The notes under the pieces: model-generated | The model's input: only the letters and a program-made list of their open reading frames with translations | What the model was told of the DNA's origin: nothing | The model's database searches: none | DNA from: Bryobacterales bacterium | GTDB lineage: Bacteria > Acidobacteriota > Terriglobia > Bryobacterales > UBA6623 | NCBI GenBank assembly: GCA_965248235.1 | Contig: CBDFIU010000002.1 | Location: 913,396 to 977,395 of the forward strand | DNA: 64,000 bases | Direction: 5' to 3' | Position numbers and translations under genes: made by a program | Shown: in pieces, positions 6,140 to 26,090 of the stretch | Layout of the letters: each line of letters starts with the position of its first letter | Numbering within the stretch: position 1 is the stretch's first letter

Positions 6140-7075
6140 TTAAAGGGGGGGACGGGCTTCGCTAAGCTCAGGCACGGAAAAAACTACGCGCGAGCTGGCG
6201 GTGAACTTGCGGAAGTTGCTGTAGGTACTTAAGAACTCGCCGTTGAATCCCTTGATCAAAGCTAGACGGGCTTTGAATCTCACTCGGAAGCTATCGACCA
6301 GCCAAACTTCGTCGTTGACGCGAGTTTTCTTAAATCGCAGCTTGGCGCCTTTATTGAGCTTGAACAGAAACAGCCCGAAGGAGACCTTCTCGATGGTTTC
6401 CGCTTCAAACTTGACCCAGGCGTAGTCGTCCTTGGCGATCCAAAAGATCCCACGCAGCTTGGATAGAATTCGAGCACGCCTGTTAGCGGGTTTGTAGCCC
6501 GGTTTCGGTTCGGCGTTGATCACGAAGGTTTCGATTCCATCAACGCAATCCTCCCCCACCAGCTGAAAATCGTAAGCCCGCTGGACCTCGGCGACAAACT
6601 CGCGCTCCTCAGTTTTCTTTTTCTCTTGCTTCGCGAGACGCTTCTTGCGCTGCCGGGGTGTCTCCTTCTGCATGCTCGCGAGGCTTTTTTCGAGTTTTTG
6701 CTGTTGCTTTTTCTCCTCCTGTGGCTCTAGCGCTCGGTCGTTGCGGGCGATGAGGCGTCGGTACACGGAGCCGTCGAGAAGAGTGAGATCGTGAGTCTTC
6801 GAGCGGCTGGATTTCAGATCCCCCTTCTTGTCGAAACTGCGCTGCTCCGACCGCTCGTGAAAGGTGTAATCGCGAGCTATCTTATCGTTCTGTTCGTCGG
6901 CAGCGAAGGCCCGACGGGTAATCTCGTTCGGGGGCAGCTCCGCGCTCTCGCCGGCGCAAGGGATGAGCCACAAGGCAAGCCAAAGGGTGTGGCAGCGCCG
7001 CTTCGGGTGGTCGCCGAGCCCCGGCCACACCCTTTCGGTAAGATGCGTTTTCCGAGACTTTTCGGCGAGTGCCAT
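6140..7075 (-). CDS. LolA-like outer-membrane lipoprotein-sorting family protein
   Basis: Track ORF. The central Lys/Glu-rich linker and C-terminal beta-rich domain (WIAKDDYAWVKFEAE, RVNDEVWL) match, from memory, the acidobacterial LolA_like family. Confidence 0.5.
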   Translation of the reverse strand: MALAEKSRKTHLTERVWPGLGDHPKRRCHTLWLALWLIPCAGESAELPPNEITRRAFAADEQNDKIARDYTFHERSEQRSFDKKGDLKSSRSKTHDLTLLDGSVYRRLIARNDRALEPQEEKKQQQKLEKSLASMQKETPRQRKKRLAKQEKKKTEEREFVAEVQRAYDFQLVGEDCVDGIETFVINAEPKPGYKPANRRARILSKLRGIFWIAKDDYAWVKFEAETIEKVSFGLFLFKLNKGAKLRFKKTRVNDEVWLVDSFRVRFKARLALIKGFNGEFLSTYSNFRKFTASSRVVFSVPELSEARPPL

Positions 7076-7435
7076 CGCGAATCCTATCGGGTCTCAGTAT
7101 CCGGAGTCACGAGTATACACCCGCGCTGCCCCGAATACCACGTCTTTTCGCGCTGAACCCTGCACATGACCTCCGCCGGTAGGCTCCAGGGCTCGTCCAT
7201 CCGCTCACAGACGTTGATTGAGCGGGCTGAACGGCGCTCCGGCCGACACTGCTCCTTGCGAAACCTTTTGGAGCCGAAAACTGTTGATCCTCGATAAGAC
7301 ACGGGCTTAACATCCCTGGCCTAGCCAAGGGGTAAAGAAGGCTGGGCCAATCCTCGGTTCAGCCGAACGCGAGCGACGCGCTTGATTGCGCAGCCAAGGC
7401 TGACCCAGGCGTTTTCAGGGTGACTTGCGCGGCCC

Positions 7436-7663
7436 CTATTCCCCCACGCGCTCGCGGGCGCGCCCGAACAGCGCCTCGCGCAAGCCGTCGAGCACCCCCT
7501 CCAGCCGCGTCATGCACTGCTCCAGGGAGTCCAGGCGGCTCTCGATGCGTCGCATGTCGTCTCGTAGTTCTTTGACGGACGCCAGAATTAAGCCTGCGAA
7601 CGTAACACCCACGCCCGCCAGCGCCACGCCCACACTCAGAATGCCGATCAGTTCAGCGCTCAT
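7436..7663 (-). CDS. Small N-terminal-TM plus coiled-coil protein (paralog of 10573..10815)
   Basis: MSAELIGILSVGVALAGVGVTFAGLIL followed by a helix ending LEGVLDGLREALFGR. It is clearly similar to the 10573 protein. Confidence 0.6.
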   Translation of the reverse strand: MSAELIGILSVGVALAGVGVTFAGLILASVKELRDDMRRIESRLDSLEQCMTRLEGVLDGLREALFGRARERVGE

Positions 7664-7861
7664 CGTGTTTCCCTTTCGGAGGCCGGGTTGGTTTTGGGAG
7701 TGGAGGAGGAGGTGGCGGTCGCTTAGTGGGCGGAAAAGGTCCGCCCCTTGTGTCTTCAGGCCGACTGAGCCGCGCAGATCTCAAAGGAACTTTTCGAACT
7801 TTGGCCTGATTTTGGCCTGGAGGATGGCTTGTGGTGAGCTAAGTGTGTGAAGGCAGCGGTC

Positions 7862-8047
7862 TTATGCCTCAATCACGTTTTGGAGAAGCTCGACAGCCGG
7901 CTTCCACTCGCCTTTCTGCATGTGCGAGACGGCTTGTTGGTACGTGTCACGAGGCGACTGTGCCGTAGTCTTGTTACACAGCAAGAACGCGCAGAGAAGG
8001 ATCGCGCCGCGGAGTTTGAGACGAAGAATTGTGCCGCGGGGTCTCAC
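7862..8047 (-). CDS. Short signal-peptide protein with one TPR-like helix pair, possibly a truncated gene
   Basis: Track ORF. It begins with a hydrophobic N-terminus, then YQQAVSHMQKGEWKPAVELLQNVIEA, and ends abruptly. Confidence 0.3.
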   Translation of the reverse strand: MRPRGTILRLKLRGAILLCAFLLCNKTTAQSPRDTYQQAVSHMQKGEWKPAVELLQNVIEA

Positions 8048-8152
8048 GGATGGGCAATAGCCTCTACCAGTGTGAAAGGCCGTACTGCATCTAGCTTACA
8101 AGGTTGGCTGGCAATCTGACTGCGGCCCTTTGCATGCGCGGACCGGCCCAAG

Positions 8153-9604
8153 TCAGTCCTTCGTGTAATAGAGAAACGCTCCGGCCATAGCGTCAATGGG
8201 GAACTCGGTCGGATTGTCGTAGACGCTGGTCAATCTGAATTTCTCGCCGGCCCGAACCCGATAGCCTTTGACATCGGAGTACGTTTCCATCCCGATCGTC
8301 TGCCCGTCCGTATCCTCTTTGGCCAGGCCCTTCCACGTGAGTTCTCCCCGCGTGACATTGAACAGCGCGATAGACTCCGCATACGGGTGAACGTGGGCGC
8401 CGGCGAAATGAATCCTGCCGTCAAAAGGAAGTTCGAAGATCGTTGTCTTCTCATGCCGGCCCGACGGGACGAAGAACAGATGGGGCATCTGCACGGCTTT
8501 CAAGATGCCGTGGAGGGCTAGCAGCGGCTTCTTCAGATCCACGTCGCGGATGAAATGGACCTTGGCCCGCATTCCCACTCGCGCGACATCGTCGCCGCGG
8601 TTGTTGAACATGGGCATCCAGTCGATCTTGTCGTCCGTCGACAACCGCAGCCCGAACCCGTCGGGTAACCGGATTTCGCGCGTAAAAGCATCCGAAAAAA
8701 GGACCTTCATCTCATTGCTAATAACTTTGCCATCCGGAGTCGAGAGCTGCTCAACATTCTGATTGCCGAAAAACGTATGGCAAAGGTAGTTCTCTTTGGG
8801 GCTCTTGCCATCGGCGCCGTAGATCTCCGTTTCGTAGGCGATGACCCAAACAGGCTCGGCGAAGCGAAACTGCAGCATGGACCCGGGGGAATGGAATGCC
8901 AAGACGTGCGATTCGACACTGAGAAAGTAAGGAGTTCGCCACTCGACCTGCTGGACGGGACCGTGCTCACTTTTCAGAGAAGAAGGCTGAAAGTCCGCCA
9001 GCAAGTCAGCGCCTTGCGCACCGGCCCTGCCCAAGCAGAGAAGCAGCAAAAGCAATCTCCACACCGGCAATTGCCTGTTGACTTCGATCGCCATCTTATT
9101 GCATAAAATTTTATGCATAGCGCATAGCCAGGCTCTCAGCTCAAAGGCTTCATTCTCGCTCTTCTCTCTTAACTTCTCGTCCAGCCCGAGTTCGCTGTCA
9201 GCCAGATCAATGATCTTAGTTCCTTTGTCTTGAAGTTGCTTCCATCGCCGCTCAATCTCGTCGCCATTCAGAGCATCGACTTGGGACCATAAAAACTTGC
9301 ATTCCGTGAGCCAGTCGGCACATCTCGTGCGCAGGCTAGAGCTGATCAGCGCCTTCTGAGAGTGTCGGTTAATAACCAACCACAGGTTCAACGCCGCCGC
9401 CAGTGCTGCAAGAATCTTCGCGATGTCCGGGACCCAATTCACAAGTAAGATGGCCACTGTCCCCGACGAGAGCAGCAGCGCACCCAGCGCGATCCACCGG
9501 TCACGCCCTGCGAGCTTGCCTGAAAGGTACCCGTAATACCGGTGAACCATCTCGGCGTGGTAGCGTGATTCCCAGACCATGCTTCTCTGTTGTTCGGTCG
9601 CCAT
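8153..9604 (-). CDS. Composite ORF with an N-terminal 2-TM SLATT-like module (9095-9604) and a signal-peptide Cu-monooxygenase-like (HxH...M) domain (8153-9094)
   Basis: One continuous frame. The second module has its own ATG at 9094 and signal peptide (MAIEVNRQLPVWRLLLLLLCLGRAGAQG). An AT-rich 18-bp palindrome at 9100-9117 sits at the junction. The first module is visibly lower in GC. Confidence 0.5.
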   Translation of the reverse strand: MATEQQRSMVWESRYHAEMVHRYYGYLSGKLAGRDRWIALGALLLSSGTVAILLVNWVPDIAKILAALAAALNLWLVINRHSQKALISSSLRTRCADWLTECKFLWSQVDALNGDEIERRWKQLQDKGTKIIDLADSELGLDEKLREKSENEAFELRAWLCAMHKILCNKMAIEVNRQLPVWRLLLLLLCLGRAGAQGADLLADFQPSSLKSEHGPVQQVEWRTPYFLSVESHVLAFHSPGSMLQFRFAEPVWVIAYETEIYGADGKSPKENYLCHTFFGNQNVEQLSTPDGKVISNEMKVLFSDAFTREIRLPDGFGLRLSTDDKIDWMPMFNNRGDDVARVGMRAKVHFIRDVDLKKPLLALHGILKAVQMPHLFFVPSGRHEKTTIFELPFDGRIHFAGAHVHPYAESIALFNVTRGELTWKGLAKEDTDGQTIGMETYSDVKGYRVRAGEKFRLTSVYDNPTEFPIDAMAGAFLYYTKD

Positions 9605-9697
9605 GTGTTTATTTTAGCGCCAGCCTGCAAACTTCGCGGATCGCTTTCACCGGCCCATCGAGGCCGCCGAAGACTTCCCGGATGGGAACCAAGTCTT

Positions 9698-10552
9698 TCA
9701 CCGGGACTTCCTGTAGGGCTTGCCGCGGAGGTAGATACTCCCTATCCCGTGGTGTCTGCGGGGGAACGGCGACCCTGGTTCCAGCGTCTCGATCAACGGG
9801 GTGACTTCCACCGCCACCACGTTGCTCGACTTTCGCTCAGGGAGGAAGTACTTCCTGTAGGGCTTGCCGCGGAGGTAGATACTCCCTCTCACGTCGATAA
9901 CGGCTTTTTCTTGATACTCCAACAGCTTTTTCACCCGGTCCGGCGTATTGCTTGTCGAAAGATTAAATACGTCGCTAAGCCGGATTCTCATCTTCTCGCC
10001 AGGCGCAAGCGAGCGCGTGGTCCGGGGGTCGTTCATCATGCCGTATGCGAGTTCGTAGGCGAAGGAGCCACTCTCGGGATATTCGTCCAGAATCAGTGAC
10101 ACCCCGGCCTTCAGCGTGTTCGGATCATTCCACGTCACGTCGCATATCGTGCCCCAGGGAATCAGGAACGGGGCGGCTCCCACATTCTCCAACTCGACCT
10201 CGTAGGTAACCTTGCCCCCCACCCTCAGCGGCAGCGGCTCGATGTCAACCAGCCGCAGGTCCAAGGGCAGACGGGGCGGCGGCGGGCCATGGATCAAGCC
10301 TCCTCCTGTTCCAACGACGATGCCGCTAATGGTCGTCGGTAGTTGGTCCTCGCACCATAAAGGCTTCGTCAAGTCAAGCGTCGGAATCGGCTCCTGGGCT
10401 TGCGCACCAACCCCCAGCAGGAACAGGCCAACAACGATAAGGTACCACCCGCGCTCGGGGCGCAGATCAGAGATTACTTCCCCGGTGGGAACCAAGACGG
10501 CCTCCCACGTTTCCGGGGCGGCGCTGGTGCTATGGATAATCGCAGTTCTCAT
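9698..10552 (-). CDS. Membrane-anchored hypothetical protein with a duplicated 3' end
   Basis: Track ORF with TM WYLIVVGLFLLGVGAQA. GSIYLRGKPYRK is encoded twice by a perfect 38-bp repeat. Confidence 0.55.
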   Translation of the reverse strand: MRTAIIHSTSAAPETWEAVLVPTGEVISDLRPERGWYLIVVGLFLLGVGAQAQEPIPTLDLTKPLWCEDQLPTTISGIVVGTGGGLIHGPPPPRLPLDLRLVDIEPLPLRVGGKVTYEVELENVGAAPFLIPWGTICDVTWNDPNTLKAGVSLILDEYPESGSFAYELAYGMMNDPRTTRSLAPGEKMRIRLSDVFNLSTSNTPDRVKKLLEYQEKAVIDVRGSIYLRGKPYRKYFLPERKSSNVVAVEVTPLIETLEPGSPFPRRHHGIGSIYLRGKPYRKSR

Positions 10553-10572: not shown

Positions 10573-10815
10573 TTAGCTGGCCGCGATCCGTCCGGTGATG
10601 GCCTCGCGCAACCCTTCCAGCAGCCCTTCGAGCTTGGCTTGGCTATGCTCCACCCGCGCCACGCGCTCTGCTAGCTGCTTCATGTCTTCTCGCAGCCGCG
10701 CCTCCATCCGGGCCATGTCCTCCCGCAGTCCGCGATTGCTGGTCAGGATCAGCCCGGACTGCGTTACTCCTATTGCCAGCACCGCAATCAAGACGCTGAT
10801 TAGCTCGACGCTCAT
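10573..10815 (-). CDS. Small N-terminal-TM plus coiled-coil protein (paralog of 7436..7663)
   Basis: RBS GGGAGG lies before ATG 10815. The protein starts MSVELISVLIAVLAIGVTQSGLIL and ends LEGLLEGLREAITGR. Confidence 0.6.
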   Translation of the reverse strand: MSVELISVLIAVLAIGVTQSGLILTSNRGLREDMARMEARLREDMKQLAERVARVEHSQAKLEGLLEGLREAITGRIAAS

Positions 10816-10928
10816 GCTTCCTCCCAATCAGTTCTGCCCATTCTCTCACGCCCCCTGAGGCTTTGGGGGAAGGGTAGCGCCCAAAATCGTACGAATTTAT
10901 ACGCTAAGCCTTTTTTCGGACGGTTTGC

Positions 10929-10998
10929 TCACAGCGTTCTCCCCGCCCACCGCACCTGTCCGACGATCCGGCCATTCTTCGGCCACGGCAGTGGTGAG
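10929..10998 (-). pseudogene. Orphan 3' fragment of an S24/CI repressor gene (copy F1)
   Basis: Encodes PLPWPKNGRIVGQVRWAGRTL-stop. Its 40-bp core is homologous to 15064-15103. Confidence 0.8.
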
Positions 10999-11003
10999 TA
11001 CTC

Positions 11004-11210
11004 CTACTGGTTAGTGTCCCCTGAGGGCTCGGTGGATTCGTCGGAATCCGTATCCGGCTCTTCGGGCTCGGTGGGTGCCGGCTCTGGCTCCGCCGGTGCC
11101 GTCGGTGCGGGTGCCGGGTCGGCGGTCGGCTCGGGCTCAGGGGTCTCCTGGCATCCGCCTAAGGCGAGCAACGTGATCGCCGTGAGTAGTGTTGCTGTTC
11201 GGATCTTCAT
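11004..11210 (-). CDS. Pro/Glu-rich lipoprotein
   Basis: Lipobox LALGGC and RBS AAGGAGG. The mature part is low-complexity PEPEPT. Confidence 0.6.
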   Translation of the reverse strand: MKIRTATLLTAITLLALGGCQETPEPEPTADPAPAPTAPAEPEPAPTEPEEPDTDSDESTEPSGDTNQ

Positions 11211-11286
11211 AGTTCCTACCTCCTTTGAAGGGGACTTATCTACCTGAGTCAGCCTAGCATGAAGGCATGCGTGTGGCTCGGTCGGC

Positions 11287-11340
11287 TCACAGCGTTCTCC
11301 CCGCCCACCGCACCTGTCCGATCACCTTGCCATCGACCAT
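11287..11340 (-). pseudogene. Orphan 3' fragment of an S24/CI repressor gene (copy F2)
   Basis: Encodes ...KVIGQVRWAGRTL-stop. It begins about 12 nt after the M23 peptidase stop. Confidence 0.8.
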
Positions 11341-11352
11341 GCAAGCGCTTGC

Positions 11353-12276
11353 TTACTGACCTGCTTGGTGCCGCACCGTCACTCCCTTGGCCACAACTTT
11401 GCCGTCAACTAAATCTAGCCCGCCCTCCGGCATTGGGGGTCCGTCGAGATCGCGGAAAAATAAAGGAAGGCCTTCGGCGAGGTTGATGGGTGGGCGAGAG
11501 CGCGGCTCTTGCCGCTGATGATGGATGTGAATGTGCGGCTCACTGCTATGGCCCGAGTTGCCACAGCGGCCGATCTCTTGGCCCTCGGTGACCTCGTCGC
11601 CTTCCTTCACCAGGACACTCCCTTGTTTGAGATGGGCGAGAACGAGATAGGTTTGGGTGTCGGGAAGCTGTAGGGAAATATGGTTTCCGAAGGGCTGAAG
11701 GGCATTCATCTCTCCCGGTGTTTCGTCGCGCACACCGTCTTCAGCAGCGGCTACACGCGCGGAGACCGGCGCGACGACTGGCAGGTCCCAACAACCATAA
11801 TCTTCAAGGTTCTTACTGCCGATGAAGTAGGGCTCGACCATCATGTCGTAAGCCCATCGCTGATCGGGGACAAGGGTGTGTTGGTTGACGGCCATGGTGT
11901 CGCCTCCCCAGGCGACTTTCAGGGGAACGTCGGCCGGCAGCCGCACCGTCGCCGAGGGTTGGACGGAGTTCACATCCGCCGGATAGGCGATCGGCAGGAT
12001 GCCGAACTGCCAGCACAACGGCCAGATCGCGAGAAGTGAGACGACGGTGGTTGCGATAACAGGGCGGCTCAGCCGGCGCTTCCACAGGACGTAGACGAAA
12101 GTCACCAGCAGACTCACCAACCCAAGCAGCGGGACAAGCTGCAACAGCAACAGCCAGGCGACGACGCCGGCAAAGCCCCCGGCCAGCACGAATCCTAAAC
12201 ACGCAAGAAGCGAGGATCCCAGAATTGACAAGGGCGTCCAGCGCAAGATGCGTCGGAGGGAGACGGAAATATTCAC
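11353..12276 (-). CDS. Membrane-anchored M23 (LytM-type) metallopeptidase
   Basis: N-terminal TM helices and the motif GNSGHSSEPHIHIH. The GTG start at 12276 overlaps the stop of fragment F3 (GTGA). The track ORF start at 12330 reads across the fragment in another frame. Confidence 0.75.
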   Translation of the reverse strand: MNISVSLRRILRWTPLSILGSSLLACLGFVLAGGFAGVVAWLLLLQLVPLLGLVSLLVTFVYVLWKRRLSRPVIATTVVSLLAIWPLCWQFGILPIAYPADVNSVQPSATVRLPADVPLKVAWGGDTMAVNQHTLVPDQRWAYDMMVEPYFIGSKNLEDYGCWDLPVVAPVSARVAAAEDGVRDETPGEMNALQPFGNHISLQLPDTQTYLVLAHLKQGSVLVKEGDEVTEGQEIGRCGNSGHSSEPHIHIHHQRQEPRSRPPINLAEGLPLFFRDLDGPPMPEGGLDLVDGKVVAKGVTVRHQAGQ

Positions 12277-12368
12277 AGCGTCCTCCCCGCCCACCGCACC
12301 TGTCCGACGACCCGGCCGTCTTTCGGCCACGGCAGCGGCGTGAGCTTCGGGTTGTCGCTGGCAAGCCA
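12273..12368 (-). pseudogene. Orphan 3' fragment of an S24/CI repressor gene (copy F3, about 32 codons)
   Basis: Encodes WLASDNPKLTPLPWPKDGRVVGQVRWAGRTL-stop. It aligns with the equivalent part of 14559..14870. Confidence 0.85.
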
Positions 12369-12374
12369 GTCTGG

Positions 12375-12806
12375 CTAACGCCTGTCGACGTCCACATCAG
12401 GGCTCCTGTCCTGAGATGCTCGAACGTGTATTAACTCAAAGCCTCGTGCAAGGACGTACGCCAGTAGTGCCACCACAAAGACCACCAGAAGCATCCAGGC
12501 AATACCCTGAAGCGTCTCGATGACGGTCCGATAGACCTCCAGTGTCCACCGCTCCGGAGTGAGGACCAAAACTTCCTCATCCTTCTGGGGTGCCGAAATA
12601 TACCGTTCCAGCTGATGGATGCGAACACCTGCCGAGATGCCGACAACGTACGCCGCAAACTTGATGTAGCGGTGCCATGCCCCGCTCAACTCCTCCGTTA
12701 CAATGCGATGCAGTATGGAAGCTATGGGACGGTCAAAGAGTCGCACAATACCATGCGACACCGTCAAAGCGATGAGAAAAGTGATGATCAGCAGTGCGAA
12801 GAACAT
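12375..12806 (-). CDS. Hypothetical multi-TM membrane protein
   Basis: Track ORF with hydrophobic segments at both ends. Confidence 0.55.
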   Translation of the reverse strand: MFFALLIITFLIALTVSHGIVRLFDRPIASILHRIVTEELSGAWHRYIKFAAYVVGISAGVRIHQLERYISAPQKDEEVLVLTPERWTLEVYRTVIETLQGIAWMLLVVFVVALLAYVLARGFELIHVRASQDRSPDVDVDRR

Positions 12807-12919
12807 AATCCGTGTATAATCTCTCAGCGCGGCCCGCTTGACTCCTGGCGAGCACTCATCAAGAGCTTACCTGAACTCGGTACCCTCCTTCCGTCGCTTT
12901 GGCGTTGTTGTTTTCTTCT

Positions 12920-12971
12920 TCACAGCGTCCTTCCCATCCACATCACCTGTCCGATCACCCGGCCCTCACTC
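12920..12971 (-). pseudogene. Orphan 3' fragment of an S24/CI repressor gene (copy F4)
   Basis: Encodes GRVIGQVMWMGRTL-stop. The core matches 15064-15103 at 38/40. It starts 4 nt after the S1 protease stop. Confidence 0.8.
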
Positions 12972-12974
12972 AAC

Positions 12975-14500
12975 TTACTTGATCGCGACCGTTACGGCGT
13001 TCAATGTGGTCCCATCGGCCGTAACGATCACGTCAACTTCGCCCGCACCCTTCAAACTGCGCGGCAGCGGCCCGATGTTAATCTGATCTAAGCCGCTGAA
13101 CTCCGGGCTAGGCACTGAGGCCAGGACCGCAACGTCCTTGCCACCGACTCTAGCTTCGAGCTGTATGGCATTACGAATGCCGGTTCCGAACAGACTCAGA
13201 AACAGCCGGTCGCCTTCGGGGCCGAGATCAATCGAAACGGCGATGAACTGCCCTTCCGAAGCGTCAAAGGGGTTTGACAACCAGCGAAAAACGTCCGGCG
13301 TCGAGCGCGAGCCGTCGGCGGAGACGCGAAGCGCTGTGATTGCCCCCACACCGCTTCCGGTCCCGTTGGCCGAGAAAAGCCCGGGAGCGACCCCGTTGAT
13401 CGCGATTGCCCATTCCGCCGCTATCTGCCCCTCGCGCGTCAGCCGCAGCCTGGCCGGTCCCGGTGCTGACTCGGCCGGCATCAGGAAATTGATCTGGCCC
13501 GGACTCACATAGAATAGTGGGCTCGCGTGCATTGCTCCCATACTGTCGATGATCTCAACTCGAGTGCCGGCCAGCTCAGTCGGAAGAGGGTGATCTGTAG
13601 CGAAGCCTGTTGTCTGGACTAAGCGCGTACCGAACAAACTTGCGATTGAACCGGGGGCAACTCCGGAAACGAAACTGGCCGCGTTCACGACCGCATTAAT
13701 CTGTTCATGAATCCAGTCTTGGATGGACGAGACTCGAGTAAAGACCCCCGGGTAGCCAGCTTCCGCTCCTCCTCCCATGGAAGTCACTCCCACCTGTCCC
13801 CAGTCGCCGCCCGGGAGCGGTACTACTAGAGGGCCTCCGCTGTCTCCGGACGAAATTCCCTTTCCCTCTATCCCGGCGCACAACGTGCGTTCATGCACGA
13901 CCTCGCTTATCCAAAAGGAATTCTCTCGGCAATCTTCTGGAGTTCGTAAAGAAATGTCTACCTTCCTCAGGATGCGAGGATTGCTGCCGTCATCTTGACG
14001 GCCCCAGCCGATGACGGTGGCGGTGGTGCCGGAAGGGGCATGTTGGGCCTCCTGCTCGGGAGCGAGGACTCTGACCGGAGCCACAGCGACCGACGGGAGA
14101 ATCTCGACCAGGGCGGCATCGTTTCTGAAGCCTGCTCCGGCATAGTAATAGTCCGGGTGGACGATCACTCGGACTATGATGTCTATTGTAATTTCCGGCT
14201 CAAACCCAAACCTTTCAACCAACTCTCGCCCTAGGAAAACGGAAATGTCGCGCGGGTTGGTCACGGACCCGTCATGATCGACCAGACAGTGCGCTGCGGT
14301 GAGGACCCAGTTCGGAGCAACGAGGCTTGCGGTACAGAAGTTGCTTGGAGTATCCGCGCTACAAAAGGCCACTCTCCGGGACCAACTTCCGTCCCGCCAA
14401 TGATGCCCCGGGGTTCGGGAAGTTCGGACTTGTCGGCGACCCCGCTTCCCGGAAAGGCCGCGAGCATCAACAATAACCATCTAATCACGTTGAGATTCAT
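12975..14500 (-). CDS. Secreted trypsin-like S1 serine protease with a Solibacter-type (TIGR03437-like) C-terminal domain, frameshifted near 14354-14358
   Basis: The signal peptide and IIGGTEVGPGEWPFVA are in frame of ORF 14261..14500. The rest (NFCTASLVAPNWVLTAAHC, GDSGGPL, VNAASF...GLDQINIGPLP) is in ORF 12975..14480. A 1-nt gap in GCGCGG joins them. Confidence 0.8.
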
Positions 14501-14558
14501 CCCGCGCCCTTGCTCACCCGCACTCCCGCGTCATCCATTTTCAGCTCGACCTCACTGT

Positions 14559-14870
14559 TCACAGCGTCCTCCCCGTCCACATCACCTGTCCGATCACCTT
14601 GCCTTCCCTCGGAAACGGAAGCGGCTTGTACACCGGGTTGTCGCTGGTAAGCCACCAGCGCTTGCGCTTCTTGGCCAGCCGCTTGACGATCACGCCATCC
14701 TCGGTCCGGACGACGAAGATGCGATTGTTGAGGCGGCGCACCCGTTGGTGATCAACCAGCATCACGGACCCTTCCTGAAGCGCGGGCTCCATCGAATCGC
14801 CCAGCACGTCGGCGCTCCTAGCCTTGTCGGCGTTGATCCCGCGTTTCAACGGCCAGTCCTCGGGGCACAC
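14559..14870 (-). CDS. S24 peptidase domain-only protein (copy F5, CI paralog lacking the HTH)
   Basis: GDSMEP and VKRL catalytic motifs. The last 40 nt are identical to the cI end. The upstream 42-codon ORF (14886-15014) is in the same frame across a TGA. Confidence 0.7.
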   Translation of the reverse strand: MCPEDWPLKRGINADKARSADVLGDSMEPALQEGSVMLVDHQRVRRLNNRIFVVRTEDGVIVKRLAKKRKRWWLTSDNPVYKPLPFPREGKVIGQVMWTGRTL

Positions 14871-15063
14871 CAGCTTGTTTATTTCTCAGTCGCTAACAAC
14901 TGCGGACCATGCGTGATTTGCTCGCACTGTCCATTTCCAATCTTCCAGAGTTGATGAAACCTTGTCTGAACGCTCAGAGCTGAAGCGAGCCTCATCTTCC
15001 AGTAACGCTGCCATGAGCGCGGTGGCGGATAGACCGGATCGGTGTTTTCGGTTGTCTTTTTCC

Positions 15064-15717
15064 TCACAGCGTCCTCCCCGTCCACATCACCTGTCCGATC
15101 ACCACGGCCTCGCGCGGCCACTTCACCGGTTTGTACTCCTTGTTGTCGCTCACCAGCAGCCAGTGATGGTTGTCGTGCATGAGCCGCTTGATTAGCGGGC
15201 CGTCGTCGGAGCGCACAGCGAAGATGCGGTTCTTGAGGCGGCGGGCGCGCTGGTGGTCGATCAGGATCATGGCCCCGTGGTGTAGCGTCGGCTCCATCGA
15301 ATGGCCGTGCACGTCGATCACGCTGCACTTGGCGGGGTTGAGTCCCTTCTTGCGCAGCCAGTCGCGGCGGAAGCCGATCTGCTTGACGACGTGCTCGCTG
15401 TCCACGAACGCACCGGGACCCGCCGAGCCGAGAACGCCGTACTTGCCGACCCAGGCTAGCTCGGGATCGGCTTCCTGGTGAAAGAGTTCGGCGGCGGGGG
15501 CCGGGTCGTCGGTGAGGCTGTAAAGATAATCCGTCGAGACACCTAGGACCTTTGCCGCCGCCAATAAGTTTTCTGCCGACATACCCGATCGACCGCGCTC
15601 AATCATTGAAATCATTGGCCGAGTGTAGTTGCCAATTTTGGCGGCCAGTTGGAGTTGGGAAAGCCGCCGGAGTCGGCGGGCTTCCTGGATGCGTCTGCCA
15701 ACAACTTCCACACCCAT
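15064..15717 (-). CDS. CI/LexA-like repressor (XRE HTH plus S24 autopeptidase)
   Basis: HTH LSQLQLAAKIGNYTRPMISMIERG, S24 motifs GHSMEP and IKRL. It is divergent from the cro-like gene. ATG 15717 was chosen inside track ORF 15064..15894. Confidence 0.85.
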   Translation of the reverse strand: MGVEVVGRRIQEARRLRRLSQLQLAAKIGNYTRPMISMIERGRSGMSAENLLAAAKVLGVSTDYLYSLTDDPAPAAELFHQEADPELAWVGKYGVLGSAGPGAFVDSEHVVKQIGFRRDWLRKKGLNPAKCSVIDVHGHSMEPTLHHGAMILIDHQRARRLKNRIFAVRSDDGPLIKRLMHDNHHWLLVSDNKEYKPVKWPREAVVIGQVMWTGRTL

Positions 15718-15740: not shown

Positions 15741-15769
15741 TTGACAGGTCAGTGAGACTTACATATACT
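15741..15769 (+). promoter_or_regulatory. PR-like promoter: TTGACA, 17 nt spacer, TATACT
   Basis: A consensus -35 and a near-consensus -10 read directly from the sequence. It lies in the 60-bp cI/cro intergenic region. Confidence 0.65.
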
Positions 15770-15788
15770 CGGGGTAAGTGACACTTAC
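15750..15788. promoter_or_regulatory. Operator candidates: AGTGAGACTTAC (15750-15761) and the palindrome GTAAGTGACACTTAC (15774-15788)
   Basis: Two copies of AGTGA-N-ACTTAC. The first lies inside the promoter spacer. The second is a perfect 7-1-7 palindrome over the cro start. Confidence 0.55.
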
Positions 15789-16026
15789 TGTGCGTAAGGG
15801 CATCAACCGTCTCCGGGGTCGCCTCGCGGAGCTGGGTGTGACCCAGCAGGACCTCGCAGACCTTCTCGGGATCAACCCGACCCTGCTGAACCACATTCTC
15901 AAGGGCCGCCGCCCCCCTCCCCCCGACTTCTTCGAGAAGGTCAACGCAGCCCTCGACCGCCTGGAGCGGGCGGAGAAGGCGGCTCAGGAAGCGAAGGAAA
16001 AGGTGCTCAACGAGGGGGTGGCGTGA
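15778..16026 (+). CDS. Cro-like HTH regulator
   Basis: HTH GVTQQDLADLLGINPTLLNHILKG. GTG 15778 lies about 8 nt after the -10 (possibly leaderless). An alternative in-frame GTG is at 15790. Confidence 0.75.
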   Translation: MTLTVRKGINRLRGRLAELGVTQQDLADLLGINPTLLNHILKGRRPPPPDFFEKVNAALDRLERAEKAAQEAKEKVLNEGVA

Positions 16027-16275: not shown

Positions 16276-16386
16276 AGGGGGTTCCCCCGTTGATTGATTG
16301 GTTGTTTGGCGGCACCCATTTTATATCACCGGGGGAACCCCCGTCTATCCAGGGGATTGCGTGAGAGGCAAAGAAGGAGAAAACGA

Positions 16387-16833
16387 ATGCCGATAGAGAT
16401 CCTACACCGCCACACACGCGCCGTTCTATTCAGTAGCCCGGCCGATACGATCGCTGGCGCCGTTCAGGAGGCGATAAAGACTCGGGCGGACCTCGGCGGG
16501 GCGGACCTCCGCGAGGCGTACCTCGGCGGGGCGTACCTCCGCGGGGCGGACCTCGGCGGCGTCTTGGCCGAACACTGCTCCCGCATCCTCACGGCGGCAA
16601 GCGGTTCCGGGTATCAAATGGTGTTCGTCCGCCACTCCGACGGCGTGTCGGTGCACGCGGGTTGCCGCAATGTTCCCTCCCTGGCCGAGGCCCGCGAGCA
16701 CTGGCGGAAGGGGAAGGATTGCGAGCCGGACCACCTGGCCGACTGCGTTGCCGCGCTGGAGTATCTCGAGGCGCTGGCGAAGCGGCGCGGCTGGGACCTC
16801 GGCGAAGAGCCCGGCAAGGAGGCGGTGGCATGA
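16387..16833 (+). CDS. Short pentapeptide-repeat protein
   Basis: RBS AAGGAG. Repeats ADLGGADLREAYLGGAYLRGADLGG. Confidence 0.6.
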   Translation: MPIEILHRHTRAVLFSSPADTIAGAVQEAIKTRADLGGADLREAYLGGAYLRGADLGGVLAEHCSRILTAASGSGYQMVFVRHSDGVSVHAGCRNVPSLAEAREHWRKGKDCEPDHLADCVAALEYLEALAKRRGWDLGEEPGKEAVA

Positions 16834-17048: not shown

Positions 17049-17312
17049 CTATAGGTCCTCGTCAGGAGGAATCATGCGCACCAGCCGGAATAAGACTTTC
17101 TGAAGTTCAGAAAGCTGCGATTGAGCAACTTCGTCAGGCCGGGATAACCGGATTTCGGCTTCCATCGAACGCTCAAGAGCTTTCAGAAAGAGATCGGTCG
17201 AACCTGGAAAATGCGCTTTGTCGAGCTGTCGAACGGCGCGTGCTACGGCGGTCAAGTACACCACTGCCAACTCAAGAGAAAGGTTAACCGGAGTGTCGCC
17301 ATTAGAGTTCAT
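17049..17312 (-). CDS. Hypothetical 87-aa protein on the opposite strand
   Basis: RBS GGAGG lies 6 nt before ATG 17312. It sits in a locally lower-GC stretch and competes with a plus-strand ORF. Confidence 0.4.
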   Translation of the reverse strand: MNSNGDTPVNLSLELAVVYLTAVARAVRQLDKAHFPGSTDLFLKALERSMEAEIRLSRPDEVAQSQLSELQKVLFRLVRMIPPDEDL

Positions 17313-17360
17313 GCTGTCCTCCCCGCGCAGAAGCAAATCATACCAACCGGAGGTTTCCGC

Positions 17361-18167
17361 GTGAGCCTGACCGCCGAGCAGCTCCGCGCCCGCGAGGGCA
17401 AGCTGACCGCCAGCCGCGTCAAGGTCCTGATGGACGGCGGCGACAAGGATCTCTATGACCTGTGGAGGGAACTCACGGGCGACCCCTCTTATGAGCAACC
17501 CGACTTGTCGGGCGTGTGGGCGGTACGGCTGGGCGAGGCGACCGAGACGTTGAACCTCGACTGGTACGAGCACAGGACAGGGCGCCCCCTCAGCCGCCGG
17601 GGCGAAGTCGTCACATCGCAAGAGCGTCCCTGGGCAGCAGCAACCCTCGACGGCTTCGACGCCTCCCGCCCCGACGGCCCTGCGGTGGTCGAGGCCAAGC
17701 ACGCCGGCGGCTTCGAGCCGTTTGAAACAGTCGTTGCCCGCTACATGCCGCAGCTTCACTGGCAGATGTACGTGACGGAAACACGGCTGGCCATCTTATC
17801 CGTCATCGAGGGAGCGCGGGCGCCGAGGTTTGAGGAAGTACCGCTCGACCTCACCTATCTGGCTGAACTGCTGCGCCGGGCCGTTCTGCTGTGGCAATGC
17901 GTTGAAACGCTGACGCCGCCTGTCGTGTTGCCACCTGTCGAGCCGCCGAAGCCTGCGATCAGGGAAGTAGACATGACGGACAACCCGGATTGGACGGGTC
18001 CGGCCACTGCGTGGCTTGAGAACCGCCATGCGGCCAAGGCTTTCCGCTCGGCGGAGAAGGCGATCAAGGAACTGGTTCCCGCCGATGCCAGGCGCGTCCA
18101 CGGGCACGGAGTGGAAGTCAAGCGCAGCAGCAACGGATCGCTGCGGATAGGAGAGACAAAGCAATGA
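17361..18167 (+). CDS. YqaJ/lambda-Exo-like recombination exonuclease (PD-(D/E)xK)
   Basis: RBS GGAGG before GTG 17361. Motifs GKLTASRV, ATLDG and VEAKH. Confidence 0.8.
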   Translation: MSLTAEQLRAREGKLTASRVKVLMDGGDKDLYDLWRELTGDPSYEQPDLSGVWAVRLGEATETLNLDWYEHRTGRPLSRRGEVVTSQERPWAAATLDGFDASRPDGPAVVEAKHAGGFEPFETVVARYMPQLHWQMYVTETRLAILSVIEGARAPRFEEVPLDLTYLAELLRRAVLLWQCVETLTPPVVLPPVEPPKPAIREVDMTDNPDWTGPATAWLENRHAAKAFRSAEKAIKELVPADARRVHGHGVEVKRSSNGSLRIGETKQ

Positions 18168-18967
18168 CAACAACGGAAGTCACGGAAACGGCCCCGAACG
18201 GCGCGGAAATTATGGAGCAGATCATCGTCAAGGGTGATCTGTCTAAACTCACGCCGGAGGAACGCGGCCAATACTATATGACGGTCTGTAAGTCGGTGGG
18301 CCTCAATCCGCTGACCAAGCCGTTCGAGTACATCTCGCTCAACGGCAAGCTGACCCTCTACGCGCTGCGGGCCTGCACCGACCAGCTGCGCGCGATCCAC
18401 GGCGTGTCCGTGGAGGAGATGACGGAAAGCGAGCGCGACGGCGTGTTCGTCGTCACGGCCAAGGTCAAGGACAAGGCGGGGCGGACCGACATCTCGAAGG
18501 GCGCGGTGTCGATCGGCAATCTCAAGGGCGACGCACTTTGCAACGCCCTGATGAAATGTGAAACAAAAGCCAAGCGGCGGGCGACGCTTTCGATCTGCGG
18601 TCTCGGATTTCTGGACGAGTCCGAGATCGAGACGATTCCCGACAGCGCGAAGGCCGGGCCCCGCGACGCGACGCCGAAGCGCGAGCCGCCCCAGGCCATC
18701 GCGGCTCGACCGCCCGCGGACCCGAAGACGGGCGCGCCGCTGCCACCGTCGCACATTCCGACGGGCGAGAAACCAAATTGGACGGCATGGGGCACGATGC
18801 TGGCCGCCGCCCTGAAAGCCGGCCCGCCCGAGCAAGCGACGGCGTGGATGGAGAAGAACCAGACGTCGCTGGACGCCTGCAAGGAGAAGGCCCCCAAGAT
18901 TCACCGGCGCCTGCTGGAAATCGCCACAAAAAGAACCACCGATACCAATTCAAAGGAGGCCGCCTAA
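18164..18967 (+). CDS. RecT/Red-beta-family single-strand annealing protein
   Basis: VGLNPLTKPFEYI and MKCETKAKRRATLSICGLGFLDESE resemble Bet/RecT motifs. It is ATGA-coupled to the exonuclease gene. Confidence 0.65.
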   Translation: MTTTEVTETAPNGAEIMEQIIVKGDLSKLTPEERGQYYMTVCKSVGLNPLTKPFEYISLNGKLTLYALRACTDQLRAIHGVSVEEMTESERDGVFVVTAKVKDKAGRTDISKGAVSIGNLKGDALCNALMKCETKAKRRATLSICGLGFLDESEIETIPDSAKAGPRDATPKREPPQAIAARPPADPKTGAPLPPSHIPTGEKPNWTAWGTMLAAALKAGPPEQATAWMEKNQTSLDACKEKAPKIHRRLLEIATKRTTDTNSKEAA

Positions 18968-24797: not shown

Positions 24798-25019
24798 GTG
24801 AGTCTCCAAGCGCCACCCGCGGCCGAGCGGCACTACTCGCCGAACGAGTTGGCCGGGCTGTGGGGAGTGTCCGCGACGACGATCCGCCGCTGGTTCGACC
24901 GGGAGCCGGGCGTGGTGAGATTCGGAAGCGAGGGCTTGCTCAACAAGCGGCGGAAGATATTGCTGCGCATTCCGGCGAGCGTCGCCCGGCGCGTCCACGA
25001 GAGGTTGGTGGTGAAGTGA
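24798..25019 (+). CDS. Excisionase/AlpA-like HTH DNA-binding protein
   Basis: YSPNELAGLWGVSATTIRRWF, directly upstream of and overlapping the integrase start. Confidence 0.6.
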   Translation: MSLQAPPAAERHYSPNELAGLWGVSATTIRRWFDREPGVVRFGSEGLLNKRRKILLRIPASVARRVHERLVVK

Positions 25020-25942
25020 TGATCCGAATGCCGCGACGGCGTAGAATGGAGCGCATGCTCACTCTCTACCGCCGTCATGCGCCCGCCTGCCCGCACCGCG
25101 AGAAAGGCGCGGCTCATCTCAAATGCGATTGCCCGCTTTGGGCCTGGGGCTCGCTGCCGAACGGCCAGTGGACCCGGAAATCGCTCGGCACCCGCAGTAT
25201 CTCTCAAGCCCGCCGCGTCATCGAGCGCTGGGAGCGCGATCAGCGAACCGGCGCGCCGCCCTCCGTCGAGTTCGCGACCGAAGCGTTCCTGTTGAAGCAC
25301 AAGGATTCGGCATGCGCTACCCGGATCAAGTACGCCAAGGTGATGCGGCTGTTTCGCGCATTCTCGGAGCGCACCGGCCACGACAGGATCGACGCCATTA
25401 CCGTGGAGACCTTCGACCACTACCGCAAGACCCGCGATATCGCCCCGCTGACCTGGGTGAAGGAATTACAGGTATTGCGGTCTTTTTGTGAGTTCTGTGT
25501 TCGCCGAGATTGGCTGAGGCGGAATTTCGCGAGGGAGGTTGAGACTCCCAAGGGGTTGCGGCCTTCGGATCGGGAGCCGTACAGCGAGGCCGAAATGGCC
25601 GCAATTCTCAAGGCTTGCGAGAGGATCGGCCAAGAGCACTACGAGCGGCTGCGGGCAAGGGCACTCGTGCTCGCCATGCGGTATGCCGGCTTGTCGATAC
25701 GAGATGCTTACCTGCTTCGGCGCGATGCCACGAACGCAAAGAGTCATCGCTTTCGCCACACGCTTGCTACCCGGATGCTCGAACAGGGCGCCAGCTTCGA
25801 GGACGTGGCCGCCGTACTGGGCAACAGCGCCAGAATCGTCGAGAAGCACTACGCGAAATGGTCCAAGGGGCGACAGGAGAGAATCAACCGCTATTTCCGT
25901 GCCGCTCATGGGATGAACGAGGAGAACCGTCTTGTGCACTGA
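25019..25942 (+). CDS. Tyrosine integrase, apparently lacking the segment between box I and HxxR
   Basis: Box I ALVLAMRYAGLSIRDA, then HRFRHTLAT only about 12 aa later, then LGNSARIVEKHY. It lies next to attR/tRNA. Confidence 0.75.
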   Translation: MIRMPRRRRMERMLTLYRRHAPACPHREKGAAHLKCDCPLWAWGSLPNGQWTRKSLGTRSISQARRVIERWERDQRTGAPPSVEFATEAFLLKHKDSACATRIKYAKVMRLFRAFSERTGHDRIDAITVETFDHYRKTRDIAPLTWVKELQVLRSFCEFCVRRDWLRRNFAREVETPKGLRPSDREPYSEAEMAAILKACERIGQEHYERLRARALVLAMRYAGLSIRDAYLLRRDATNAKSHRFRHTLATRMLEQGASFEDVAAVLGNSARIVEKHYAKWSKGRQERINRYFRAAHGMNEENRLVH

Positions 25943-26013: not shown

Positions 26014-26039
26014 CTGGTGGACCTGGAGGGAGTCGAACC
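26014..26039. repeat. attR core within the tRNA-Ala 3' end
   Basis: Identical to 1080-1105. Confidence 0.85.
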
Positions 26040-26090
26040 CTCGACCTCTTCCATGCCATGGAAGCGCGCTCCCAACTGCGCCACAGGCCC
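26015..26090 (-). tRNA. tRNA-Ala (anticodon GGC), 76 nt with encoded CCA
   Basis: Manual fold of the reverse complement GGGCCTGTGGCGCAGTTGGGAGCGCGCTTCCATGGCATGGAAGAGGTCGAGGGTTCGACTCCCTCCAGGTCCACCA. It gives a 7-bp acceptor stem with G3:U70, anticodon loop AUGGCAU, and T-loop GGTTCGA. Confidence 0.9.

Follow-up and report, generated by a model that had tools for sequence, protein, structure and literature searches.

Why does the 3' end of one repressor gene recur, always in the same orientation, among small genes that have nothing to do with it? The question is raised by a 64-kb stretch of DNA from a soil Bryobacterales bacterium (Acidobacteriota), called the window in the following, which carries an intact cI-like repressor gene and, downstream of it, 5'-truncated copies of the 3' end of such genes. 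A truncated copy is termed a relic, the last 35-40 nucleotides (nt) its core, and the genes between relics cargo. The six copies in the window are genuine repressor 3' ends which bound mostly single-gene cargo units. The region is an accessory-gene array, of the moron/defence type, in the lysogeny module of a prophage-like element of about 25 kb integrated at a tRNA-Ala gene. We propose that the relics are probably recombination scars which double as portable homology patches, and that general homologous recombination shuffles the cargo.

The reference copy of the repeat is the last 40 nt of the intact gene, positions 15064-15103. A degenerate 35-nt core, TCACAGCGTYCTYCCCRYCCACMDCACCTGTCCGA, has exactly six matches in the 64-kb window, all on the plus strand, at 10929, 11287, 12273, 12920, 14559 and 15064; the expectation from shuffles is 0. 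A repeat search of the window gave the same families. The original prediction, made from the letters of the window, had placed six co-oriented repressor ends at these positions, and all six are there. Identity to the 40-nt cI end is 40/40 at 14559 and 38/40 at 12920, as claimed. Counted by hand, it is 35/40 at 12273, 36/40 at 11287 and 33/40 at 10929, the last being slightly under the 35-36 that had been given. An alignment of the six copies shows that frame and TGA stop are kept throughout and that homology always extends to the stop codon; the upstream reach differs copy by copy. By profile search the relics comprise 104 codons (14559), 15 codons (12920), 30 codons (12273), 14 codons (11287) and 24 codons (10929), close to the figures of the prediction. 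Equally, the short relics were said to start soon after the stop of the upstream gene; the measured gap is 0-9 nt.

The repeat search of the window found no dyad symmetry or inverted repeat within the cores. Single-strand DNA folds of the six cores with their flanks have z-scores of -0.8 to +1.1 against shuffles, i.e., no unusual structure. On the array strand no sigma-70-like promoter or terminator was found in or beside the cores. About 13 nt beyond the stop codon, GTTGTYTTYTTCY, are common to the 12920 relic (12907-12919) and the cI copy (15051-15063); hence both open with V-[RK]-K-K-T-T from GTGA. The 12920 relic appears to have been copied from an arrangement of cI plus a small open reading frame (ORF) which resembled the present one at 15064.

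The array has the following order, starting from the repressor (aa, amino acids; TM, transmembrane):

15064-15717, minus strand: intact cI-like repressor, 217 aa, with HTH_3 and Peptidase_S24 domains (Pfam); database protein P0001 is 99% identical and of equal length.
14879-15067, minus strand: ORF of 62 codons, the first array unit; its GTG start overlaps the cI stop (GTGA).
14559-14873, minus strand: long relic, a 103-aa ORF previously called S24-only; profile positions 126-229, S24 being its only Pfam domain.
12975-14562, minus strand: cargo, secreted S1/trypsin-like protease; a 501-aa ORF is Trypsin in Pfam.
12920-12967, minus strand: relic, 15 codons and stop, 38/40 to the cI end.
12375-12806, minus strand: cargo, membrane protein of 143 aa, without a family match.
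12273-12365, minus strand: relic, 30-33 codons and stop, with the variant end GQVRWAGRTL (core match and profile search).
11353-12276, minus strand: cargo, M23 metallopeptidase of 307 aa (Pfam Peptidase_M23).
11287-11331, minus strand: relic, 14-15 codons and stop; upstream boundary of the lipoprotein cassette.
11004-11210, minus strand: cargo, Pro-rich lipoprotein of 68 aa with lipobox LGGC; this cassette is common to relatives from relic to relic.
10929-11003, minus strand: relic, 24 codons and stop, which follows the lipoprotein stop without a gap and closes the shared cassette on its downstream side.
10573-10827, minus strand: cargo, TM/coiled-coil protein of 84 aa; last unit with a preceding relic.
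6140-10552, minus strand: three more ORFs (284, 483 and 311 aa), not separated by relics; Pfam and PHROGs gave nothing for them.

The contents of the units had been predicted largely correctly. Pfam agrees on the S1, M23 and S24 domains, and the lipobox on the lipoprotein. Two assignments have to be revised, and the list of one-gene units was incomplete because a seventh, the 62-codon ORF at 14879-15067, had been overlooked; no homologue of it was identified. What was taken as an S24-only protein is better read as a long relic, probably from a different cI lineage. It retains the Ser/Lys catalytic motifs and is about 73-76% identical to the resident cI except for the final 40 nt, which match at 40/40, as a recent exchange in the core might leave them. 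The S1 protease is split in two frames. The signal peptide and IIGGTEVGPGEWPF lie in ORF 14261-14500, the rest of the trypsin domain (NWVLTAAHC) in 12975-14480; the cause, near 14350-14400, is either an error of sequencing or a true frameshift that makes the gene a pseudogene. In its C-terminal half the protease resembles 'TIGR03437 family' exoproteins of Acidobacteria. No close homologue to which its origin could be traced was found (at most 53% over full length).

The repressor itself conforms in sequence to the cI/LexA-type S24 layout, with an N-terminal HTH, a C-terminal S24 domain and a divergent cro-like gene. Exact-protein look-ups of the window cI, and of a database protein, P0121, which is identical to the M23 cargo, returned nothing on record. 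The 3' 440-455 nt, approximately, of cI (15064-15518, the S24 domain) are 95-97% identical to L003 and L005-L011 among the related loci described below, and the HTH-coding 5' part (15519-15717) is without a DNA match to them. Such a mosaic suggests that immunity specificity was exchanged at the linker between the domains.

The architecture recurs in related Acidobacteriota prophages. The protein database holds 225 repressor homologues. A genome scan with the repressor alignment yielded 54 loci, all from metagenome-assembled genomes of Acidobacteriota (Bryobacterales, Vicinamibacterales, Terriglobia), often several per genome. Relics were detected by searching the repressor profile against all stop-to-stop six-frame pieces of these loci. 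A full-length repressor is present in 35 loci and in 27/35 at least one relic lies downstream. The strand bias is complete: 90 relics are on the repressor strand, 0 on the opposite one. Relic length has a median of 27.5 codons (range 11-106), and 71/90 relics end at most one residue from the stop; some have no stop. Relics per locus reach 6-7. In the family, too, a relic usually starts at most about 30 nt from the upstream stop codon. The C-terminal end V[IL]GQVMWTGRTL is that of 78/120 homologues, some of them only 40-50% identical overall. Synonymous sites in the last 12 codons are not unusually conserved, apart from an AGG Arg codon. The conservation of the core thus reflects a constraint at the protein level, and a DNA-level constraint was rejected. 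Read-through or fusion with the upstream gene was also considered and rejected: 3/4 short relics of the window are in frame behind a single stop, but in the family the count is 23/73, i.e., chance.

Several observations on these loci are added here. In single Vicinamibacterales genomes as many as ten loci carry a repressor of this family or relics of one (e.g., OZ252219.1: L024, L033, L035, L038, L045, L047, L049, L050, L052, L057). The arrays L046 and L051 have six or seven relics and no full-length repressor within 5-10 kb upstream. Relics may adjoin each other with gaps of -1 to 55 nt (L040, 10726-11408; L044, 11510-11715; L045, 10705-10860; L006, 12738-12915). The repressor of L045 has a different C-terminus (GEVKWAARTF), and a 51-codon relic of the common type comes immediately after it; adjacency of this kind seems to be what a replaced repressor or a deleted cassette left behind. 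Beyond these genomes, searches of limited power retrieved little. IMG/VR gave no core match and no close relative, only matches to the HTH domain of 25-44% (one short match of 61%). A tblastn search of a cultured-phage collection, an insensitive test for relic arrays, gave distant repressors only, one match to each record; none reached 60% identity, and the best listed had 33%.

What differs between close relatives is the cargo. The repressors of L001 and L002 are 99% identical to the window cI, that of L003 80%. The backbone of L001-L003 is common, i.e., integrase, PriCT_2, DEAD helicase, ERF/YqaJ, cro and cI, and the genes after cI are wholly different: HEPN AbiU2 in L001, a 77-aa S24 fragment gene and genes of unknown function in L002, a pentapeptide protein, a D12 methylase and a SacI-type restriction enzyme in L003. 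Repressor-end fragments also occur inside these variable regions. At the DNA level (blastn) the cI gene of the window is 95-98% identical to those of L001, L002 and L004, and similarity stops 2-4 nt after the stop codon. Among phages whose repressors are 97-99% identical, the cargo behind the repressor stop differs completely. Differently filled versions of the cI 3' end, which the original prediction had proposed to look for, thus exist in L001, L002, L003 and L004, and cassette content is anything but invariant.

The lipoprotein unit is the only window cargo shared at the DNA level, and it is shared from core to core: the high-scoring pairs span 10928-11334. Its interior is 94-97% identical in nine loci (73% in one), and the bounding cores are 78-92% identical. 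The flanks beyond the cores are unrelated, except for the upstream flank in L006 (58%) and for L008, in which the next unit is shared; part of the 84-aa TM/coiled-coil unit is common to L008 (99%) and L004. The cassette occupies array position 0, 1, 2 or 4, i.e., directly after cI in L007 and second, third or fifth elsewhere. When the 144 inter-relic units were clustered, 14 families were common to more than one locus, several at differing array positions. The cargo of the family is mixed: Sel1 repeats, DNA methylases, a CAP12/Pycsar-type TIR domain, AbiU2, PtuA-like ATPases, M48 peptidase, carbonic anhydrase, MerB, TonB_C, ankyrin and pentapeptide proteins and HNH. Judged by these alignments, cassettes move as relic-bounded units, and the relics mark where accessory genes get gained, lost and reshuffled.

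How does exchange happen? The relics at the lipoprotein cassette reveal at least 3-4 distinct exchange intervals, spread over up to about 75 nt of homology. The core type linked to the cassette, RWAGR(AGA)TL, stands whole behind at least 3 different upstream junctions. The core of L009 is a hybrid, MWT on the left and AGA on the right. L006, L007 and L040 have whole cores of the resident cI type at this cassette, and in L001 and L011 the core type switches about 20 nt after the lipoprotein stop. Exchange points spread along a homology are expected from homologous recombination, not from a site-specific enzyme. Further, the identity of relics to the resident cI end has no trend with array rank (rho -0.06, p 0.7, 13 arrays), and some distal relics are 36/36 identical to it. 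The missing gradient argues against strictly serial insertion at the head of the array; it fits unequal exchange between any patches or gene conversion. The age gradient which head insertion should leave was therefore rejected. Of the insertion or exchange of cassettes that had been predicted for the repressor end, exchange and cargo variation stand; the strictly serial insertion which displaces older ends does not.

Candidate enzymes for such exchange are encoded in the element that carries the array. Its relevant features are the following:

1080-1105: left-hand attachment (att) copy, an exact 26-nt repeat of the tRNA-Ala 3' end.
15741-15769, plus strand: divergent sigma-70-like promoter TTGACA-17-TATACT, near-consensus.
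15778-16026, plus strand: cro-like HTH gene (Pfam); the same divergent cro/cI pair is found in relatives L001-L003.
17211-18167, plus strand: YqaJ-type exonuclease (Pfam YqaJ).
18164-18967, plus strand: ORF of 267 aa, putative single-strand annealing protein, adjoining YqaJ; 98% identical to its L001 counterpart.
24860-25942, plus strand: tyrosine integrase, about 10 kb from the array and the only integrase.
26015-26090, minus strand: tRNA-Ala, adjoining the integrase; the right-hand att copy is 26014-26039.

The exact 26-nt direct repeat at both ends delimits an integrated element of about 25 kb, 1080-26039. It comprises integrase, replication, recombination and immunity genes, with the YqaJ exonuclease and a helicase among the early genes. 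Pfam and PHROGs revealed no virion genes left of the array; relatives L001-L003 have tail-fibre-like genes after the array. The element may be a defective prophage or satellite-like. In L002 the place of the 267-aa ORF is taken by an ERF-family protein, to which only the C-terminal 190 residues, approximately, of the ORF are similar (36% identity). The N-terminal domain of the ORF is different and without a match to any Pfam or PHROG family. Possibly the ORF encodes an annealing protein whose core domain has been swapped. Three repeats elsewhere in the element are recorded in passing. Five 15-nt tandem units (16484-16558, plus strand) in the early ORF 16294-16833 encode pentapeptide-like repeats, ADLGGADLREAYLGGAYLRGADLGG; a pentapeptide-repeat protein is L003 cargo, too. 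An 18-nt inverted repeat, 16277-16294/16325-16342, 94% complementary (GGGGGTTCCCCC), lies between early genes and is possibly a terminator or protein-binding site. A 45-nt direct repeat, 96% identical (9706-9750 and 9850-9894), lies in the 284-aa ORF 9698-10552, in which the C-terminal motif GSIYLRGKPYRK is doubled.

We infer the following course of events. A relic would be born when DNA carrying a repressor end plus a downstream gene is illegitimately joined just behind the stop codon of a resident gene. Because the last 12 codons or so are conserved at the protein level, every relic is a patch of 35-100 nt of near-identity to all related relics and repressor ends. Several related phages, often present within one genome, could then be partners for patch-to-patch recombination. 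Homologous recombination between non-allelic patches would add, delete and reorder cassettes, and the recombinants would consist of the prefix of one array and the suffix of another, possibly by way of circular intermediates. The catalyst might be the host RecA or, more plausibly in view of short and diverged homology, the phage YqaJ exonuclease together with the annealing protein. On short and diverged sequences, phage recombinases of the Rad52-like type are far more efficient than RecA (PMC3945230). The array would be co-transcribed with cI. That relics usually start near the upstream stop may be due to selection which favors compact arrays and removes long direct repeats, as well as S24 repeats that are unstable or dominant-negative.

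The relics may have a further role, in translation. The M23 gene starts with a GTG overlapping the stop of the preceding relic, GTGA at 12273-12276, and an SD-like (Shine-Dalgarno) motif of this relic, GGGGAGGA, lies 4-5 nt upstream; both the ribosome-binding site and the start codon of the gene come from the relic. The overlap had been predicted and is real: P0121, also of 307 aa, starts at the same GTG. The closest M23 homologues besides P0121 are 85-87% identical in aa and reside in ordinary chromosomal neighborhoods (transporter, PIG-L, PadR and hydantoinase genes). Nucleotide homology is 86% and runs from about codon 9 to exactly the stop codon, and the next relic follows directly. By this comparison the M23 cargo was evidently captured from a host-type chromosomal gene. 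A chain of stop/start overlaps is at 14497-14562 (minus strand), from the relic GTGA (14562) through a 21-codon ORF to ATGA at the start of the protease signal peptide (14500). Most cargo genes begin 75-190 nt after a relic with a Shine-Dalgarno motif of their own, the lipoprotein, membrane and TM/coiled-coil units included. Among the distinct cores of the family, 91/111 have a GTG, ATG or TTG overlapping the stop (NTGA), and from 17 of them an ORF of 100 codons or more begins; of the ATGA variants 3/4 open ORFs of 152-203 codons. The core Arg codon (Arg211) is the rare AGG in 19/35 genes, which creates GGGAGG. Thus, a relic can serve as a translation-initiation platform in a minority of units, its GGGAGG and the GTG overlapping the stop being the probable translation start of the next gene.

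One may go further and argue that relics are kept mainly as cis-acting expression elements which travel with the translation-initiation region of the cargo, recombination being incidental. The frequency of NTGA, the ORFs opened by the ATGA variants, the M23 start shared with P0121, the GTGA to ATGA chain into the S1 protease, the AGG codon and the lack of a recognizable promoter or terminator on the array strand all speak in its favor. We consider it unlikely as the principal explanation: most cargo does not use the relic as its start, and by our own estimate a share of 17 long ORFs in 91 is close to that expected by chance if in-frame genes are extended upstream. It also leaves unexplained why there are relics of 30-100 codons, pairs of relics in direct contact and relics without a stop. 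An expression role is, however, compatible with recombination scars acting as homology patches and does not exclude it. Very unlikely is an integron-like site-specific system in which the repressor 3' end is the site for the element integrase, a host Xer or another recombinase. The original prediction had proposed a test of this kind for the core, and the arrays do look the part, with co-oriented, mostly single-gene units, a conserved core of about 35 nt at 27/35 loci and some relics perfectly identical to the resident end. But domain searches of the window and the relatives found no recombinase gene in or beside the arrays, as the prediction itself had noted for recombinase, reverse transcriptase and attC-like structures within the array. 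The sole integrase pairs with the 26-nt tRNA-Ala att, and in the window no copy of the core is near either att site; the core as integrase att site was rejected for this reason. An attC-like hairpin or terminator in the core was rejected as well, since the cores fold no better than shuffles, and they contain no dyad. Finally, the cores are all co-oriented, unlike pdif modules, the exchange points fall at several positions over up to about 75 nt of homology, and relic length varies from 11 to 106 codons.

Are the relics then inert debris of tandem duplications of whole repressors, or of immunity-region replacements, with no role in mobility? Long relics do exist, such as the 104-codon S24 piece in the window and those spanning profile positions 124-179 to 229 in relatives. 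L045 has what a replacement would leave, and some relics lack a stop. Debris is nonetheless most improbable. One and the same cassette occurs at differing positions, always between relics, and beside different neighbors; the cores are hybrids; up to 6-7 relics per locus are far above any plausible number of repressor replacements; cargo is wholly different between phages with 95-98% identical repressor DNA. An assembly artefact from mis-joined reads deserves practically no credence. Nothing in its favor was found, although the genome is an assembly from an uncultured organism and the frame break in the S1 protease could be a sequencing error. The repeats are 35-100 nt long with unique flanks, the architecture is present on dozens of independent contigs and genomes, and the boundaries of the lipoprotein cassette are the same in nine loci.

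Several points weigh against recombination scars shuffled by general homologous recombination, too. The support derives wholly from comparing assemblies. The loci were retrieved with a peptide pattern of the conserved C-terminus and the frequency of arrays may therefore be overestimated. The cores are short and, at 78-92% identity, near or below the usual RecA threshold, so the efficiency is uncertain. Homologous recombination alone explains neither the birth of relics nor their starts near the upstream stop, for which selection has to be invoked. Lastly, the rare AGG Arg codon and the NTGA starts suggest that the relic is to some extent selected for a part in expression, so that the scars need not be purely neutral. 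A more far-reaching proposal unites both aspects, and we put it forward as doubtful and speculative. The repressor 3' end would be a selected platform for docking and expressing cargo in temperate phages of at least two Acidobacteriota orders (Bryobacterales, Vicinamibacterales). Annealing protein and exonuclease would capture host or defence genes as near-exact ORFs, which would be expressed from the repressor transcript via the built-in SD/NTGA and transferred between co-resident prophages as relic-bounded circles. The whole would be integron-like without a dedicated integrase.

Why does this matter? The ways in which temperate phages acquire and exchange morons and anti-phage defence genes mostly have to be deduced from the borders of mosaics, and the DNA on which recombination acted can seldom be seen. 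In these arrays the sequence footprint is unusually legible: a recognizable relic of the end of one gene stands at each exchange junction, and cassette boundaries, exchange intervals and the host-gene capture of M23 can consequently be read from the sequence. If general, the relics provide a simple sequence signature by which cargo and defence islands may be found in uncultured prophages, and a natural case of a very short, protein-constrained homology as universal linker between diverged phages. They would also be a tractable system for the question whether phage annealing proteins drive accessory-gene flow. Acidobacteriota are an abundant soil phylum.

How, then, do the arrays compare with known systems? 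Cargo expressed in lysogeny from behind a repressor is familiar from lambda rexAB, from BstA in BTP1-type prophages and from the Ltp/Sie lipoproteins. The analogy with rexAB was drawn in the original prediction and is apt: here, too, cargo is downstream of and co-oriented with cI and includes abortive-infection or restriction-type genes and a small lipoprotein. To our knowledge those loci consist of one fixed operon or gene without repeated repressor-end relics. The likeness to integrons lies in co-oriented, mostly single-gene units without obvious promoters of their own, a recurring site and a position downstream of a fixed platform able to supply expression signals; here, however, there is no IntI/attI beside the array, no attC-type folded site and no fixed crossover point. 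Xer/pdif modules have 28-bp XerC-6-XerD dyad sites in alternating orientation, whereas 90/90 relics are co-oriented and the core has no dyad. Tandem integrative elements carry an integrase per unit and their repeat is the att core; the units described here are single cargo genes without integrase, and att is the tRNA-Ala 3' end.

Searches of the literature, which were of limited power, for repressor-end relics, Acidobacteria prophage repressors and defence hotspots behind repressors gave no description of such arrays. The statement of the original prediction that this is not a described system was still too strong. In T4-type phages, PeSLs are short repeats, of tens of nt, on either side of small genes that are not essential and lie in a hyperplastic part of the genome (Arbiol et al. 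2010, PMC2839356; Comeau et al. 2014, PMC4122927). PeSL-to-PeSL recombination is described there as causing insertions, deletions and replacements between close relatives, and mini-circles can be released (PMC2839356). Here, too, changes between close relatives are bounded by repeats. A PeSL, as defined in those accounts, is an intergenic strong early promoter with a terminator stem-loop; the relic is derived from coding sequence and no promoter or terminator was found in it. Further, the present arrays are in temperate phages and only downstream of the repressor.

Close in layout, too, are the orphan tips of rhs and cdiA. Their proposed origin is C-terminal displacement by homologous recombination in the conserved part, possibly via circular intermediates (Jackson et al. 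2009, PMC2935791; Poole et al. 2011, PMC3150448). Here as there, a complete gene precedes co-oriented pieces of its own conserved 3' region which lack the 5' part, and each piece has a downstream gene. In rhs/cdiA, however, the gene's own C-terminal toxin tip is exchanged with its immunity gene and the main protein is altered; here the repressor is unchanged, its conserved sequence runs to the stop codon, and the cargo consists of unrelated whole genes (peptidases, lipoprotein, AbiU2, methylases). The displacement order of rhs/cdiA, new tips at the head and old ones distal, has no counterpart in these arrays (rho and p as above). As to the enzymes, Red-beta, RecT and Erf with their exonucleases recombine short or diverged sequences and make mosaics between co-resident phages and prophages (De Paepe et al. 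2014, PMC3945230). Phage genomes are usually without internal repeats (PMC3945230); this phage family, in contrast, carries arrays of them. The logic matches rhs displacement (PMC2935791) and PeSL shuffling (PMC2839356), though the literature searches gave no description of a repressor-end version. Repressor-end arrays are thus repeat-mediated modular shuffling of known logic, in a repressor-end form that is new and widespread in Acidobacteriota prophages.

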